A stretch of 44,997 bases of DNA, from NCBI GenBank assembly GCA_964617945.1, contig CAZTXA010000002.1, positions 1,543-46,539 of the forward strand, in the 5' to 3' direction. Positions 7,902 through 13,039 of this stretch are shown one piece after another. Both the position numbers and the translations under genes were made by a program. The notes under the pieces are model-generated. The model was not told the DNA's origin, did no database searches, and was given only the letters and a program-made list of their open reading frames with translations. The stretch is from an uncultured archaeon. Lineage in GTDB: Archaea > Nanohalarchaeota > Nanosalinia > Nanosalinales > Nanohalalkaliarchaeaceae. Each line of letters starts with the position of its first letter. The stretch's first letter is position 1.

Positions 7902-8513
7902 TCACAGCAGGAACAGCAGCCCGGCGAGCGCGAGGGTGAACGCCCAGAACGGGGTGTGCCACCGCATCAGTTTGTACCCGTCCAGCGGGTAGAACGGGAT
8001 GAGCGTGAACGTTGCGATGAACGCGTTCACCATGGCACCGACGTGGAACAGGTTCTCACCGAGGAACGGCAGCGTGGCCACGTCCGCCACGTACGCGAAT
8101 ATCACGCCCAGCATGATGTTGACCAGCGGCCCGATCGCGGCGACCAGTCCGACCTGCTTCACGGTGAGCTTGGGTTCGTAATGCCCGTACCGCTCACCCT
8201 TGACAGTATGCATCTCGATACCGCCCGGGACCGCGGCGAGGATGCCGATGAACGGGCTGAGAACAGTGATGACGGTGCCGGGCGTCCACTGCCGGTACTC
8301 CGCGTACGATTTCAGGGCGCGCGCACTGACCTGGTGGCTGACGACGTGTGCAAGGAACGCGATACCCGCGATCACGGTGCTGACAGCCACTGCAGGGATC
8401 ACTGTGGCGGACAGGAGGAACGAGGGGGAGCCGTCGCCGAAGATGAGGAGGGCGGTGCCCACCCCGATCGCCACGGTCGATATCGTGATGTCGCGGACCT
8501 CCTCCGTGTTCAT
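7902..8513 (-). CDS. Site-2 protease (peptidase M50)-like membrane protein with atypical HVVSH in place of HExxH
   Basis: 203 aa, polytopic. The second M50 motif NAFIATFTLIPFYPLDGYKL is present. The first motif reads FLAHVVSHQVSAR. The ATG overlaps the stop of the upstream Hjc-like gene (ATGA). Confidence 0.6.
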   Translation of the reverse strand: MNTEEVRDITISTVAIGVGTALLIFGDGSPSFLLSATVIPAVAVSTVIAGIAFLAHVVSHQVSARALKSYAEYRQWTPGTVITVLSPFIGILAAVPGGIEMHTVKGERYGHYEPKLTVKQVGLVAAIGPLVNIMLGVIFAYVADVATLPFLGENLFHVGAMVNAFIATFTLIPFYPLDGYKLMRWHTPFWAFTLALAGLLFLL

Positions 8514-8989
8514 GCTTCCACCCCGTCCAGCACCGGCTGGACGTTGTACGACTCCGAATCCCGCTGCAGCTCCCGGTGCTGCTCCAGGTCGTCGATCGCG
8601 ATACCCGGGACGTTATCGTTGTATAGCTCCTCGACCTGCTTCCACGGCACCAGGAACGCCTTCCGCTGCCGTCCCCGCCCGCGTTTCACCTCGACCGCGA
8701 GGAACCCGGTACGGCCGCTGCGCCGTAAAAACTCACTGATCCGCTCCACCTGGTGGCCGTCCTCGCTCTCGGAAAAGTGCTGGGAGAAGTACAGCTTGTT
8801 CGTCGCGCTGGTGGAGATGGACTTGTTCTCGATCGCGAGGTAGAACTCCGGCCGGATCGAGTCCACAAGCACGTCGACGAACTGTGAACTGAACCGGTGC
8901 TGTTTGCGCCGGTACGCGATGCCGCGCTCGCTGCTCTCCTTGAAATACCGGTTGAACGCGTTCACGAGCTCGCGTTCGAACTCTGTCAT
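8510..8989 (-). CDS. hjc: Holliday-junction resolvase Hjc-like nuclease (restriction-endonuclease fold)
   Basis: Start trimmed to ATG 8989 (MTEFERELVNAF...). ERELV, VDVLVDS and YLAIENKS (D...E-x-K) followed by GFLAVEVK match the Hjc motif order. TATA-like CCTTTAAAC lies about 25 nt upstream. Confidence 0.6.
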   Translation of the reverse strand: MTEFERELVNAFNRYFKESSERGIAYRRKQHRFSSQFVDVLVDSIRPEFYLAIENKSISTSATNKLYFSQHFSESEDGHQVERISEFLRRSGRTGFLAVEVKRGRGRQRKAFLVPWKQVEELYNDNVPGIAIDDLEQHRELQRDSESYNVQPVLDGVEA

Positions 8990-9035
8990 GCGACAGTATA
9001 CGGTTCCCGTGTTTAAAGGATTACCGCGGCACCGG

Positions 9036-9324
9036 TGACAGCGGGGAAAAAGAGTGGGAACCGCGGCGTGGCAGGCGACGCCAGCGGGACAGTGGTCCGT
9101 GACCGTCCTCGCCGCCGCGACCCTCCGAACGCCGCCCACCACGGCTGAGGGCTGCTCCCGTCAAGGCCTGACCCGGTTCACCGCAGGGACGGCCCCGGAG
9201 GACGGCGGGTCGACGTCGGGACACGGGCTGTCCTGCCGGGACGCTGCGCCCCCGCGGCATCACCCCTGCTATCGAGGATTTGCAGTGGAGCCGTCCCCGA
9301 GGCGGCCGGGCTATCCCGCCTCAA
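9036..9324 (-). ncRNA. Signal recognition particle (7S/SRP) RNA; ends approximate
   Basis: The minus strand reads ...GGGUCAGGCCUUGACGGGAGCAGCCC... (plus coordinates 9150-9173). This matches the universal helix-8 pattern GG-UCAGG-stem-tetraloop-stem-AGCAG-CC of E. coli 4.5S RNA (GGUCAGGUCCGGAAGGAAGCAGCC). The region is about 280 nt, GC-rich, highly self-complementary and non-coding. TTTAAAA (9341-9347, minus strand) lies about 25 nt upstream of the proposed 5' end. A U-run (9047-9051) is near the 3' end. Confidence 0.7.
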
Positions 9325-9340
9325 ATCTCGGTCGAGAAGC

Positions 9341-9347
9341 TTTTAAA
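9341..9347 (-). promoter_or_regulatory. TATA-like box for the SRP RNA gene
   Basis: TTTAAAA on the minus strand, about 22-27 nt upstream of the GGCGGGAUAGCCC... start of the structured RNA. Confidence 0.45.
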
Positions 9348-9376
9348 CGTGGTTCTGTGGCGGTGGGAAGGGGACG

Positions 9377-9385
9377 ATTTTTAAG
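9377..9385 (+). promoter_or_regulatory. TATA-like box positioned for a leaderless transcript starting at the Cys-rich mini-ORF
   Basis: ATTTTTAAG is centred at about 9381, 27 nt upstream of ATG 9408. The same spacing is seen at many genes in this window. Confidence 0.4.
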
Positions 9386-9407
9386 TCTGTAGATAGGAGT
9401 GGAGGGT

Positions 9408-9485
9408 ATGAAGGGTGGATGTGTTTGCCGGGGCGGCGACGACGATGACGGGTGCGGCTGCGGCGACGGCTGCGGCTGCTGCTAG
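9408..9485 (+). CDS. 25-codon Cys/Gly/Asp-rich mini-ORF (MKGGCVCRGGDDDDGCGCGDGCGCC); candidate leader peptide or metallothionein-like micropeptide
   Basis: Hand-translated: ATG 9408, TAG 9483-9485, with 8 of 25 codons being Cys (UGU/UGC). GGAGGG lies 2 nt upstream of the ATG, and a TATA-like box is centred 27 nt upstream. Too short for the ORF track. Coding status is unproven. Confidence 0.35.
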   Translation: MKGGCVCRGGDDDDGCGCGDGCGCC

Positions 9486-9526
9486 CCGCGGCACTCCGAC
9501 TCAGTTCTCCAGTACTATCTATACAG

Positions 9527-9597
9527 GCCGGGGTGGCAGAGGAGCTATGCGACCGCCTGCAGAGCGGTTTACCCGGGTGCAAATCCCGGCCCCGGCT
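9527..9597 (+). tRNA. tRNA-Cys (anticodon GCA)
   Basis: Manual cloverleaf. Acceptor GCCGGGG/CCCCGGC is fully paired. Anticodon stem is ACCGC/GCGGT with loop CUGCAGA (GCA at positions 34-36). T arm is CCGGG-UGCAAAU-CCCGG. Discriminator is U. The short 3-bp D stem with a 13:22 mismatch is as in other tRNA-Cys. No encoded CCA. Confidence 0.9.
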
Positions 9598-9614
9598 CTT
9601 TCACAGGGTGGACG

Positions 9615-10025
9615 TTGGTGATACCGGTCGCGCCGGCCATCGCCTACACTCCGGAGAGCGACAGGTTCCTCGTCGTGAAACGGTCGGAGGAGAAGGACAT
9701 GTATCCAGGGCGGTGGGAGTTCCCGGGGGGCGTCATCGAGGCCGGGGAGACCCCGGTCGAGGCGGCTGAACGGGAACTCCGGGAGGAGACCGGGTTCGTG
9801 GGCGACACGATCCGGGAGGGCGGCACACACGTGGTCCGCGGCGACTACGGTGAGTTTAAAGTACATCCGGTGCTTATAGCTGTAGAGAAGCAGGAGCCTG
9901 ACCTGTCCCGGGAACATACCGAGTACCGGTGGCTCCCGTCCGAGGACGTCGTGGCGATGGAACACACTGTTGACGGACTGGACAAGGACCTGCTCGCTGT
10001 CGGTATAGAGGTTGACAACGCATGA
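9615..10025 (+). CDS. Nudix hydrolase
   Basis: Nudix box [24 protein letters not shown]. The start is TTG 9615 or GTG 9618, only 18-21 nt after the tRNA-Cys 3' end. The stop overlaps the cysS ATG (ATGA). Confidence 0.85.
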
Positions 10026-11440
10026 CACTGTCCCTGTTCAACACCCTTACCCGCGAGAACGAAGAGTTCGACCCGATCGAGGAGGGGAAGGTGCGGATGT
10101 ACTCGTGCGGGCAGACCATCTACGACGACCTCCACGTGGGAAACGCCCGTGCCTACGTTGCATGGGACACGCTCCGCCGCTACCTTGAATGGAAGGGGTA
10201 CACGGTCCGGCACGTCCAGAACATCACTGACGTGGGCCACCTGACAGACGACGGCGACCAGGGCGAGGACAAGGTTGAGCAGCGCGCGGACGAGCTCGGA
10301 CTGGAACCGATGGAGCTCGTGGAGGAACAGCTGCAGCGGTACTTCGAGGACACGCAGGCGTTGAACGTCCCGCGGCAGGACATCATGCCCCGCGCCACCG
10401 GCCACATCAATGAGATGATCGAGTACGTGAAGCGGATCATGGAGAACGGGTACGCGTACGAGCGTGACGGGAACGTCTACTTCGACGTGGAAACGTTCGC
10501 GGAGGATCACGAGTACGGTGCGATGGCGAACAAGGACCTGGAGCAGCTGAAGGAGGAGGCCGAGGGCCGTGTCGAACCGGATGAGCGGAAGAAGAACCAG
10601 TTCGACTTCGCACTGTGGCTGAACGCTGACGAGAACCATGCGATGCAGTGGGAGAGCCCGTGGAGCAGGGGATACCCGGGCTGGCACCTCGAGTGTACAG
10701 TCATGTCGCAGAAATACCTGGGCGACCGGTTCGACATCCACACCGGTGGGAAGGACCACATCTTCCCGCACCACCCGAACGAGCGGGCGCAGGCGCTGGC
10801 AGCGACAGGGGAGGGGATGGCTGACACATGGCTGCACAACGAGTTCGTCACCGTCGAGGGGGAGAAGATGGCGAAGTCGGAGGGCAACTTCTACACCGTC
10901 CGCGAGCTGTTACAGGAGTTCGACGGGGACGCGATCCGGCTGTACCTCGTCTCCTCGCACTACCGCTCCGCGATGGACTTCTCCATCGACGGCCTGGAAC
11001 AGGCCGCGAAGGAACTGTCACGGGCACGACAGACCGTGCAGCGCATAGAGAAAGTGGACGGGGGCGACACGGCGGGTATCGATATCGAGGAGGTCCGCGA
11101 CCGGTTCGCGGCGGAGATGGACGACGACCTGAACACCGCCCGTGCCAAACAGGTACTGATGGACGCGGTCAGCGACGTGAACGCGGCACTCGAGGACGGG
11201 CAGTCGGTGGACGGCAGCGTCCGCGAGACGTTGATCGAACTGTTCGATGTACTGGGTGTCGACGTCGACCCTGATGTCCCGGACGAGGAGCAGGCGATGG
11301 CCGACATGCTGCTGGAGTTGCGGGAGCGGTACCGGGACAACGATGACTACGAGACCGCGGACAGTATCCGCGACGTCATGGACAGTGCAGGGTTCACGGT
11401 CGAGGACACGGGCGACGGCGCGATCTGGCTGAAGAAATAA
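10022..11440 (+). CDS. cysS: Cysteinyl-tRNA synthetase
   Basis: 472 aa. HIGH-type motif [11 protein letters not shown], class-I core [17 protein letters not shown]-type motif [10 protein letters not shown]. Confidence 0.95.
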
Positions 11441-11444
11441 CGCC

Positions 11445-11540
11445 TTACTCGTCCTCGTCGTCGACTAGTTCCGCGGCCCGGTCGCCCAGCATCGAGCGCA
11501 CTTCTTCCTTCTTTTCTTCCTCTCCGTTGTCCGGGTCCAT
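11445..11540 (-). CDS. 31-aa acidic mini-protein (MDPDNGEEEKKEEVRSMLGDRAAELVDDEDE), hypothetical
   Basis: Hand-translated ATG 11540 to TAA 11445-11447. TTTTATATG on the minus strand lies about 27-35 nt upstream of the ATG. There is no homology evidence. Confidence 0.3.
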   Translation of the reverse strand: MDPDNGEEEKKEEVRSMLGDRAAELVDDEDE

Positions 11541-11641
11541 CGCGTCCTACACCTTCTCGCTCCCGCATATAAAACCACTGGCCGCCCCCGTCATCCACGC
11601 TCAACAGTACCGATTTAAGACAGGGCACCGGTAGGTACGGT

Positions 11642-13039
11642 ATGGACGAATTCGACCTCATCGTAATCGGCTCAGGCTCCGGTCTTGACGTGGCATCGGC
11701 CGCCGCCCGGGAGGGATACGATGTCGCTGTCGTCGAGGAGGGACCGATGGGCGGCACCTGCCTCAACCGGGGGTGCATCCCGTCAAAACTCCTTATCCAC
11801 CGCGCCGACCTCGCCGAGGAGATCGGGCGGTCGGAAGCGTTCGGTATCGATGCCACCGTCGACGACATCCACTTCGCCGACATGGTCCGTGAGGTGAACG
11901 AGGAAGTGGGCGAGGACGCGGAGAACATCAAACGCGGGATCAGGAACTCAGAGCAGCATACACTGTACCACGACCGCGGCCGGTTCGTTGACGACACGGT
12001 TATCGAGGTCGGCGGTGAGAAGATCACGTCGGACCGTATCGTGATCGCGGCCGGAACCCGCCCGGTCGTCCCGCCGGTCGACGGGCTGGAGGAGGTGGAC
12101 TACCTCACGTCGAAGGATGCGCTGGAGCTGGAGGAGCAGCCCTCGCACATGGTTATCATCGGCGGCGGGTATATCGCCGCGGAGCTCGCCCACTTCTACG
12201 GCGCCCTCGGCACCGACATCACCATCATCGAGATGGGGGAGACCATGGTCGGGAACGAGGACGCGGAGATCCGGGAGGTGTTCACCGACAGCTTCTCCGA
12301 GAAATACGACGTCCACCTCGGATACGCGGCCTCTGCCGTGGAAGAACGTGGCGGCGAAATCCGTGTCACCGCGGAGGACGGGGACGGCGACGAGATAGAG
12401 GTAGCGGGTGACGAGCTCCTGGTCGCGGCCGGGCGGACACCGAACACCGACATCCTCGAACTCGAGAGTACAGATATCGAGACCGACGACCGCGGGTTCG
12501 TCGAGACCGACGACCACCTGCGGACGAGCGTCGATGGGGTGTATGCGCTCGGCGACATCGCAGGGAACTGGATGTTCAAACACTCCGCCAACTACGAGGC
12601 CGGTGTCGTGTTCCAGAACCTGTTCGGCGGCGGGGATCAATCCGTGGACTACACGGCGATGCCGCACGCCATCTTCTCCTCGCCGCAGATCGCCGGTGTC
12701 GGGAAGACGGAGGAGGCGTTGAAGGATGACGATGTGGAGTACCTTGTCGGCCGGTACGAGTACGCCGACACCGGGATGGGCAGCGCATTGAAAGAGGAAG
12801 ACGGGTTCGCGAAGGCACTGGTCGACCACGATACCGGAGAGATCCTCGGGTTCCACGTCCTCGGCCCGCACGCCTCCATCCTCATCCACGAAGTCCTGGT
12901 CGCGATGCGGAGCGGCGGGACCGTACAGGACATCAGGGACACGATCCACATCCATCCCGCGTTGAGCGAGGTCGTGTCCCGCACCTTCGGCGCCCTCCAA
13001 CACCCTGGACACCTTGACCACGACCACCACGGGCACTGA
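11642..13039 (+). CDS. Class I pyridine-nucleotide disulfide oxidoreductase (Lpd / mycothione-reductase / GCR-like) with His-rich C-terminal tail
   Basis: FAD motif DLIVIGSGSG, redox-active disulfide GGTCLNRGCIPSK, second Rossmann motif VIIGGGYIAAE, dimerisation-domain HIHPALSEV. The C-terminus is HPGHLDHDHHGH. TATA-like ATTTAAG lies about 25 nt upstream. Confidence 0.9.
   Translation: MDEFDLIVIGSGSGLDVASAAAREGYDVAVVEEGPMGGTCLNRGCIPSKLLIHRADLAEEIGRSEAFGIDATVDDIHFADMVREVNEEVGEDAENIKRGIRNSEQHTLYHDRGRFVDDTVIEVGGEKITSDRIVIAAGTRPVVPPVDGLEEVDYLTSKDALELEEQPSHMVIIGGGYIAAELAHFYGALGTDITIIEMGETMVGNEDAEIREVFTDSFSEKYDVHLGYAASAVEERGGEIRVTAEDGDGDEIEVAGDELLVAAGRTPNTDILELESTDIETDDRGFVETDDHLRTSVDGVYALGDIAGNWMFKHSANYEAGVVFQNLFGGGDQSVDYTAMPHAIFSSPQIAGVGKTEEALKDDDVEYLVGRYEYADTGMGSALKEEDGFAKALVDHDTGEILGFHVLGPHASILIHEVLVAMRSGGTVQDIRDTIHIHPALSEVVSRTFGALQHPGHLDHDHHGH

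Follow-up and report, generated by a model that had tools for sequence, protein, structure and literature searches.

A cysteine-rich small ORF upstream of tRNA-Cys and cysS

This study concerns a small open reading frame (sORF) in a stretch of 44,997 nucleotides (nt) from an uncultured nanohaloarchaeon (contig CAZTXA010000002.1 of assembly GCA_964617945.1); the whole stretch is called the window below. The sORF is followed on the same strand by a tRNA-Cys gene, a Nudix hydrolase gene and cysS, which begins 0.5 kb 3′ of the sORF. An initial annotation of the locus had considered that the ORF might be a cysteine-sensing leader, a metallothionein-like micropeptide, or a non-coding spacer prone to slippage. 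The elements found at the locus are:

9378..9385, plus strand: TATA box TTTTTAAG of the sORF/tRNA-Cys promoter, centred ~26.5 nt before the A of the ATG.
9408..9485, plus strand: predicted leaderless sORF, ATG at 9408, TAG at 9483-9485, 25 codons, 7 Cys, product MKGGCVCRGGDDDDGCGCGDGCGCC.
9408..9428, plus strand: 21-nt 5′ signature ATGAAGGGTGGATGTGTTTGC, which ends in the in-frame Cys codon 7.
9449..9483, plus strand: Cys-Gly cluster CGCGDGCGCC, encoded by the period-6 repeat CGGCTG (5.8 copies, TRF).
9486..9526, plus strand: sORF-tRNA spacer of 41 nt, with no TATA box and no T-run; TTCTCC at 9505-9510.
9527..9597/8, plus strand: tRNA-Cys (GCA), detected by ARAGORN and by Rfam (RF00005, 53.4 bits).
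9606..9612, plus strand: Shine-Dalgarno-like GGGTGGA before the Nudix start, identified from the sequence.
9615..10025, plus strand: Nudix hydrolase (MutT-like), start TTG 9615 or GTG 9618 (Pfam PF00293, E 5.6e-21).
10022..11440, plus strand: cysS (class I cysteinyl-tRNA synthetase, CysRS); its ATG overlaps the Nudix TGA at 10022-10025.
11512..11515, plus strand: first T-run after the promoter (TTTT), the likely end of the transcription unit.

The coordinates and translation of the ORF in the initial annotation were reproduced, as were the 41 nt that separate its end from tRNA-Cys and the ATGA by which the Nudix gene overlaps cysS. The count of 8 Cys was not: the recount yields 7, at codons 5, 7, 16, 18, 22, 24 and 25. 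Even so, the enrichment in this codon (7/25) is far beyond chance. Cys makes up 28% of the sORF peptide and 0.69% of the confident proteins of the window; the runner-up among the 209 ATG-initiated ORFs of 15-40 codons in the window has 3 Cys, and 200 first-order Markov simulations of the window produced no ORF with at least 7. The peptide contains three CxC motifs and one CC pair (codons 24-25), and lacks F, Y, W and H.

Database searches did not connect the peptide with a known family. Seven peptides, namely that of the window and its relatives (see below), are absent from 15 billion public proteins by exact look-up; six family peptides have no Pfam or NCBIfam match at E up to 10, and the sole match of a PDB profile search was the wheat Ec-1 metallothionein (2kak), with an E of 0.34. 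Searches of viral contigs with the Cys-cluster pattern and with a tRNA-Cys pattern gave 0 matches each.

The promoter geometry is that anticipated in the initial annotation, which had also pointed to the GGAGGG found at 9401-9406, just 5′ of the ATG. Many genes of the window have a TATA box that ends ~22-25 nt before their ATG, so leaderless mRNAs appear to be the norm here, and the TATA box at 9378-9385 therefore places the predicted transcription start on the AUG of the sORF. The plus strand is devoid of TATA-like hexamers between 9386 and 9854, in agreement with the earlier observation of no separate TATA-like element at the expected distance before the tRNA or the Nudix gene, and no T-run of 4 or more occurs between 9386 and 11511. 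Archaeal RNA polymerase terminates at oligo-T and does not need a hairpin. The Shine-Dalgarno-like GGGTGGA ahead of the Nudix gene fits an internal gene of an operon. Because internal TATA-like boxes and T-runs are missing and the Nudix start is led by a Shine-Dalgarno-like motif, a single transcription unit appears to comprise the sORF, tRNA-Cys, Nudix and cysS, as the initial annotation had suggested. The next gene downstream, with its ATG at 11642, is preceded at 29 nt by a TATA box of its own (11613). A separate tRNA promoter at CTATCTATACAG (9515-9526) was ruled out as too near the tRNA 5′ end.

Long relatives of the sORF precede tRNA-Cys in other lineages

Sequence comparisons were made on both strands of 754 kb of sampled DNA, a set enriched for tRNA-Cys and cysS loci whose only unbiased portion is the 45-kb window itself. 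Sampled comparison loci are designated by L-numbers. In this set tRNA-Cys lies 5′ of cysS in at least 18 of ~44 nanohaloarchaeal loci, and 12 lineages, dispersed across the CysRS tree, have an sORF with leaderless geometry ahead of tRNA-Cys. Shine-Dalgarno-like motifs comparable to GGGTGGA are found 3′ of tRNA-Cys in L003, L006, L020, L031 and L034.

In seven lineages, the window included, the ORF carries a Cys cluster. These ORFs lie on the same strand as tRNA-Cys and at a distance of 31-117 nt from it, in genomes of 40-67% GC. The six Cys-cluster ORFs other than that of the window are:

L003: MKGGCVCGDGDDDGCGCGGDCDC
L009: MKKCCCKDKEDCGCGEDCGCSE (genome of 40% GC)
L020: MSSDRFCSCTECCDDDSCGCGE
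L035: MSKEEDSDSSSGKEEKSCGCKNCGCN
L036: MSCNCSREDDEDKKGCGCGDDCGCN
L089: MSKNKREKDCGCKKCACQN

A C-G-C triplet is invariant in the seven lineages, with variation at third codon positions only (TGC/TGT; GGC/GGT/GGA). C-[GAD]-C is conserved in six of the seven and absent in L020, and an acidic run stands ahead of the cluster. When all six frames of the 754 kb were searched, the motif CGC.{0,4}C[GAD]C turned out to be restricted to the Cys-cluster ORFs. Comparison of the window with L003 is especially informative: the sORF is 82% identical, the flanking non-coding DNA 45-54% and the tRNA 94%, and the differences within the ORF include an in-frame indel of 3 nt. The contrast between 82% in the sORF and about 50% in its flanks indicates purifying selection. 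An identical sORF is also present in an independent assembly of the same strain (L107).

These data bear on the trivial explanation that the sORF is fortuitous and without function, the tRNA 5′ leader simply having a (TGCGGC)n spacer that is prone to slippage. The period-6 repeat at 9449-9483 and the GC-rich genome would be in keeping with that explanation, and yet we consider it very improbable: none of the 200 simulated windows reaches 7 Cys, the ORF, its frame and its cluster persist in genomes of 40% GC, where the repeat is lacking, an identical copy exists in a second assembly, and the motif is exclusive to this position in the 754 kb. The spacer hypothesis of the initial annotation is thus rejected by the conserved frame, the AUG at the predicted start, the in-frame indels and the third-position variation. 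In the comparison of relatives that it had recommended, frame and Cys codons are kept before tRNA-Cys and cysS, and the Cys cluster varies at third positions.

Short leaders share a 21-nt 5′ signature with the sORF

Six further lineages have a shorter ORF before tRNA-Cys, with a length of 11-17 codons that in five of them is 11-12:

L004: MKGGRFCPARCN
L005: MSSDRFCLRKACKAGGR
L008: MSSDRFCPCLPE
L019: MSSGRFCPRFR
L031: MNSDRFCLRHSF
L034: MQGGYVCPRPR

On the CysRS tree the long and the short forms intermingle. When the 12 tRNA-linked leaders are aligned without gaps on their ATG, all have their TATA box at -30 to -25, where 11-12 of the 12 show A/T, and a pyrimidine occupies position -1 in 11, so that the AUG falls on the predicted transcription start in all of them. 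Conservation within the leader is highest over its first 21 nt (ATGAAGGGTGGATGTGTTTGC in the window, ATGAGYAGTGRTCGTTTTTGY elsewhere), and codon 7 is Cys in 9 of the 12. At the peptide level, MKGGCVC of the window is homologous to KGGRFC of the L004 and L016 leaders.

A signature derived from the tRNA-linked leaders (ATG-N3-RGTGR-N3-TKTTTGY, as a regular expression) was run over both strands of the 754 kb. It gave 18 matches, compared with ~0.05 expected by chance. All 18 have a TATA box on their 5′ side, lie directly upstream of tRNA-Cys or cysS, and carry the Cys codon in frame. The 18 include nine leaders of cysS (from eight cysS-anchored loci and L101) and two repeat copies (window and L107). 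Altogether, a Cys-codon leader before tRNA-Cys or cysS is found in about 20 nanohaloarchaeal lineages, and by sequence the sORF of the window is a member of this family.

Two observations concern short motifs in these leaders. The TTCTCC found 3′ of the stop codon is kept in all four leaders of the subgroup that we call MKGG (window, L003, L004 and L034). AGGGTGGAYGT occurs twice in the window, at 9411-9421 (sORF codons 2-5) and at 9604-9614 (the Nudix ribosome-binding site), both copies being Shine-Dalgarno-like; in short leaders the equivalent position is occupied by GTGATC. An internal start led by a Shine-Dalgarno element after GTGATC was contemplated and dropped, as the resulting ORFs are not conserved.

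Another explanation is that the peptide itself would be the product: an acidic metal- or thiol-binding micropeptide of metallothionein type, expressed together with its own decoding machinery in a coupling of supply and demand that involves no sensor. The invariant C-G-C, the C-[GAD]-C of six lineages, the third-position-only variation (Gly codon included) and the acidic run all speak for selection on a peptide, whose size, Cys content and CxC motifs fit the descriptive definition of a metallothionein; the lone PDB profile match, to wheat Ec-1, is of that class. Gene architecture adds to this in low-GC lineages, where Cys-cluster ORFs are followed within 12 nt by a run of T4-5 (L036, L089, L035 and L020) and tRNA-Cys may have its own GATTTAAAAC-like TATA box (L009, L036 and L089), which gives the ORF the look of an independent gene. 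Two lineages, L009 and L036, hold a Cys-cluster ORF before tRNA-Cys besides a separate short leader before cysS. Several facts, however, are difficult to accommodate. The peptide has no significant similarity to Pfam, NCBIfam or PDB families; several losses of the cluster have left the AUG, codons 1-7 and the position intact; the N-terminal part shares homology with the short cysS leaders, which a free-standing metal binder leaves unexplained; and such a product gives no reason for the constant proximity (31-117 nt) to tRNA-Cys. On balance we regard a functional peptide as the main rival of the leader model set out below, and as somewhat less probable than that model. As for the metallothionein-like micropeptide of the initial annotation, conservation of C-G-C…C-x-C at the protein level is in its favor, and the similarity to metallothionein families that one might look for is not significant.

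Leaders of cysS have a long-range helix next to the ribosome-binding site

The nine signature matches before cysS (L002, L009, L011, L013, L022, L026, L028, L036 and L101) are 81-135 nt from the cysS ATG (83 nt in L101). They encode peptides of the type MSS[DG]RFCPCH, five of which have exactly 10 codons. Two leader ORFs, at L016 and L037, were added by eye outside the matches of the regular expression; they have insertions of +6 and +12 nt, respectively, and Arg-Phe-Cys is still in frame. This brings the lineages with a short leader heading cysS to 11. The TATA box of the cysS-linked leaders has the same position as that of the tRNA-linked ones, within about 3 nt.

In the cysS leaders, nt 2-12 of the predicted transcript (including the AUG) can pair with a CACUGCUC-like strand that terminates 12-18 nt before the cysS AUG, adjoining the ribosome-binding site. 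When the pairing was evaluated by RNAduplex against 300 shuffles, z-scores of -2.8 to -4.2 were obtained in 7 of the 11 leaders, with at most 3 of the 300 shuffles as good. A significant helix between the 5′ end and a distal strand, near the ribosome-binding site downstream or a U-run, was also detected in the tRNA-linked L005, L008 and L019. In a hand alignment of the helix (alignment A5), for which the 3′ strands of 4-5 sequences were picked by complementarity, 78% of the cells are paired, compared with 26-57% upon sliding of the partner strand. In five of the pairs both sides have changed, and none of 500 shuffles reaches the covariation score. In the FCPCH subgroup, the 5′ strand could instead pair within the ORF (CAGUGA/UCACUG).

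Given the covarying helix that involves the 5′ strand, one may ask if the conserved entity is RNA and the ORF incidental. The first ~21 nt and the leader motifs would then be a processing, stability or protein-binding site of the pre-tRNA-Cys and cysS transcripts, for instance a U-rich Lsm site or a 5′-end helix. The Shine-Dalgarno-like character of the 5′ stretch (GGGTGGA / GTGATC), with its U-run, and the conserved TTCTCC downstream are compatible with this idea, and so is the fact that leaders of the MKGG and MSSD subgroups are 62-76% identical over the first 21 nt while only 2-4 of 7 residues match. However, an RNA element would not need the coding features observed: the AUG is placed exactly on the predicted transcription start in all of the 20+ leaders, all 18 signature matches have the Cys codon in frame, the lengths of the two insertions are divisible by 3, the Cys cluster varies at third positions only, and the indel that separates the window from L003 is in frame. 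In archaea that use leaderless mRNAs, the 5′-terminal AUG is the translation signal itself. We therefore regard an RNA element with an incidental ORF as improbable.

A tentative model: reading of Cys-tRNA(Cys) supply by the ribosome

The interpretation that we favor is that the 25-codon ORF is the leaderless, Cys-codon leader ORF of the tRNA-Cys/cysS unit, in which the supply of Cys-tRNA(Cys) would be read by the ribosome. We give it a probability of about 0.45. The steps of the model would be the following:

(i). Transcription would start on the A of the AUG, and the ribosome would load at the 5′ end.

(ii). Clearance of the Cys codons (codon 7 family-wide, and six more in the window) would depend on the supply of Cys-tRNA(Cys).

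(iii). The time spent by the ribosome on the leader 5′ region would set the fate of the RNA downstream. In the cysS-linked relatives, the ribosome would occlude the 5′ strand and prevent formation of the helix that abuts the cysS ribosome-binding site. In the window, candidate routes are protection of the 5′ end, pre-tRNA processing (access of RNase P), and access to the Nudix-cysS mRNA.

(iv). Cleavage by RNase P and tRNase Z would then release the sORF mRNA, the tRNA and the Nudix-cysS mRNA from one another.

A broader claim, that this is a ribosome-mediated Cys sensor in Archaea which controls the output of tRNA-Cys and its synthetase, is more tentative. If it held, the leader would be the first archaeal leader peptide of attenuation type, and the first ORF rich in a cognate codon within the 5′ leader of its own tRNA. 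A sensor and a micropeptide are not mutually exclusive, and the leader peptide of the long variant may double as a thiol- or metal-binding micropeptide by virtue of its conserved Cys-Gly cluster.

The model has to be confronted with a series of observations that weigh against it, many of them made on the window itself. The 5′-3′ helix detected in relatives is not significant in the window (z +1.2) nor in L003, its closest usable relative (z +0.5), by RNAduplex; in neither does the leader pair with the tRNA or the Nudix ribosome-binding site better than shuffles do. Pairing of the window 5′ end with the spacer and with the region after the tRNA is no better than in shuffles, and no duplex beyond shuffles is formed by the Cys tract or the sORF with the Nudix ribosome-binding site or the tRNA. 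Folding energies of the leader and the pre-tRNA are ordinary (z from -0.3 to +0.3 in the window, -0.7 in L003), and RNAalifold found no consensus structure in either leader subgroup, the window being grouped with L003, L004 and L034. No terminator, antiterminator or helix sequestering a ribosome-binding site is detectable in the window. Oligo-T is missing between the sORF and the tRNA, so a switch based on transcription attenuation is not visible. Since neither a switch helix nor a terminator is seen, the sensing step, above all, is something that we infer, together with its sign; the transcription start, co-transcription and translation are predictions.

Other objections come from the family. 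Conservation at the protein level extends to the Gly residues between Cys and to the acidic run, and a pure sensor needs neither. The Cys codons of the sORF are mostly non-consecutive; consecutive ones occur elsewhere (CCC in L009, CC in L020), and most short leaders have C-P-C. The independent-gene look of the ORF in low-GC lineages belongs here as well, and so does the choice of 3′ strands by complementarity in the hand alignment. Furthermore, many nanohaloarchaeal tRNA-Cys genes and about half of the cysS loci are without a leader, and it must therefore be dispensable or replaceable. A final complication is a conserved TTCTAAACCT-like stretch found ~40-45 nt before the cysS ATG in L002, L009, L011-L013, L016 and L037. 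This stretch could be a second, proximal promoter with a start on the 3′ strand of the helix, which would complicate an attenuator.

Comparison thus strengthens the cysteine-sensing leader proposed in the initial annotation, by way of the signature, the in-frame Cys codons and the covarying helix of the cysS-linked relatives; the terminator, antiterminator or sequestering helix that would complete it is not detectable in the window.

Some additional readings were examined and dropped. A C/D-box small RNA does not fit because its boxes do not fit. A T-box was discarded after Rfam cmscan of 8400-10200 gave no T-box match at E up to 10. An acceptor-stem mimic was also considered: GCCGGGG at 9427-9433 (codons 7-9) equals the 5′ acceptor strand of the tRNA (9527-9533) and might compete for the 3′ acceptor strand. 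As it is missing from L003, the identity is probably due to chance.

Comparison with known systems

Polycysteine leaderless sORFs of mycobacteria are Cys-responsive attenuators that block a duplex sequestering the ribosome-binding site (Canestrari et al., bioRxiv 10.1101/834739). Of the systems compared, these are what the leader of the window most resembles in its putative function. In both cases a cysteine-related operon opens with a short ORF that has Cys codons and a 5′-terminal AUG (predicted from the sequence in the window). The short nanohaloarchaeal relatives, moreover, show pairing of ORF RNA beside the downstream ribosome-binding site, which a held ribosome would prevent. Differences are also evident: the host is an archaeon of the DPANN group, the targets are decoding genes (tRNA-Cys and CysRS) instead of Cys biosynthesis genes, and a tRNA gene lies inside the predicted transcript. 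Two or more Cys codons in a row are a mark of the mycobacterial type; the Cys residues of the window peptide alternate with Gly, with a single C-terminal CC pair and no runs. No duplex is detectable in the window.

Bacterial attenuators that depend on a leader peptide (trpL, hisL, pheL) have a short upstream ORF rich in codons for the amino acid served downstream. The leader ORF of the window is likewise enriched in the cognate codon; it differs in having no terminator/antiterminator pair or U-tract, and in the conservation of Gly and Asp besides Cys. The T-box leader of the Bacillus cysE-cysS operon, a bacterial device, binds tRNA directly. It shares with the leaders described here the position in cis before cysS and a logic in which charging of tRNA-Cys is reported, but the candidate sensor in our case is a translating ribosome, and a T-box was not matched in Rfam.

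Metallothioneins are a descriptive class of small proteins with 15-30% Cys in CxC and CC motifs and no aromatic residues; Neurospora Cu-metallothionein has 25 amino acids and 7 Cys. The window peptide resembles Neurospora Cu-metallothionein and wheat Ec-1 in its 25 residues, 7 Cys, CxC motifs and lack of aromatics. The sequence relationship is, however, not significant (best E 0.34), metal binding is only putative here, and the fixed place before tRNA-Cys has no counterpart among metallothioneins.

Mixed operons of tRNA and mRNA are known in E. coli (tyrT-tpr, thrU-tufB), where the primary transcript is cut by RNases. The window is predicted to be similar in having a tRNA and coding sequence on one primary transcript. 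In contrast, its ORF lies in the 5′ leader of the tRNA, appears to be leaderless, and abounds in the codon that this very tRNA decodes.

Ribosome-mediated sensing of amino acids by leader peptides is textbook knowledge in bacteria and, to our knowledge, is not established in archaea; our search of the literature found no description of a Cys-leader element of this kind in archaea. The family provides a concrete, compact and conserved test case, with about 20 lineages and two target genes dedicated to Cys decoding. If the model is correct, a tRNA precursor can have an mRNA as its 5′ leader, which bears on the annotation of tRNA genes and small ORFs in archaea. DPANN symbionts, with genomes of about 1 Mb and few regulators, would then have a cheap, protein-free way to match decoding capacity to amino acids derived from the host. 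If the peptide is a functional product, an unrecognised family of archaeal metallothionein-like micropeptides would be at hand.

Neighbouring genes

The promoter region of the sORF is bounded upstream by a gene for signal recognition particle (SRP) RNA:

9052..9321, minus strand: SRP (7S) RNA gene (Rfam RF01857, 79.7 bits, E 1.1e-17, model positions 1-317).

Its score is under the Rfam gathering threshold of 96.5 bits, and yet the match is full-length. Since this gene lies on the minus strand, a second TATA-like box at 9340-9349 is the SRP RNA promoter, and a 112-amino acid ORF on the plus strand at 9054-9392 is spurious. The sORF and SRP RNA promoters are thus divergent, within a gap of 86 nt, and L004 shows a matching layout of SRP RNA and leader.

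The CysRS of the window is 87% identical to that of L001, a metagenome-assembled genome of ‘Ca. Asbonarchaeaceae’, and 63-75% identical to other CysRS of Nanohaloarchaea, relationships by which the window falls among Nanohaloarchaea-like DPANN archaea. Exact look-up found no copies on record of this CysRS or of the oxidoreductase encoded downstream. NCBIfam matches of the Nudix protein were all under their cut-offs, and a search for Nudix homologues returned only L107, of the same strain, L109, whose contig is cut inside the tRNA, and L108, which belongs to a lineage with a disrupted tRNA-Cys.

Past the likely end of the transcription unit, a gene at 11642-13039 (plus strand) has its own TATA box and codes for a pyridine-nucleotide disulfide oxidoreductase (Pyr_redox_2, E 3e-58), the C-terminus of which, HPGHLDHDHHGH, is rich in His. 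The neighbour of the Cys-decoding unit on this side is a thiol/disulfide enzyme. A very acidic ORF of 31 codons, MDPDNGEEEKKEEVRSMLGDRAAELVDDEDE, runs convergent on cysS at 11540-11445 (minus strand); with a TATA-like box at ~11567-11574, at leaderless distance, it may be a further unannotated small gene.

Unusual tRNA-Cys genes in related loci

Only the last 14-17 nt of tRNA-Cys remain before the Nudix gene in L001 (2564-2577), the closest relative of the window, and in L108 (~2965-2985), an independent Logan assembly. The DNA upstream of the remnant is unrelated (SdpI/DUF1648, DUF6653 and two small ORFs), which suggests that DNA was inserted or rearranged in this lineage where tRNA-Cys has its 3′ end.

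Introns are present in many nanohaloarchaeal tRNA-Cys genes, among them those of L004 (2818-2971), L005 (1519-1656), L019 (1228-1346), L020 (682-821), L022 (264-388) and L034 (1576-1677). The intron follows the anticodon in five of these loci, and that of L034 interrupts the D-loop around position 15/16. The intron-bearing genes were missed or mis-called by ARAGORN.

Finally, a 15-nt copy of the tRNA-Cys 5′ end stands immediately ahead of the real tRNA in L004 (2759-2817) and L031 (661-720), and also in L067 and L088. The copy is followed by a conserved hairpin (GCACC-TTWC-GGTGC) and by ATCTGCGCACCCG, an arrangement kept between two distant lineages.

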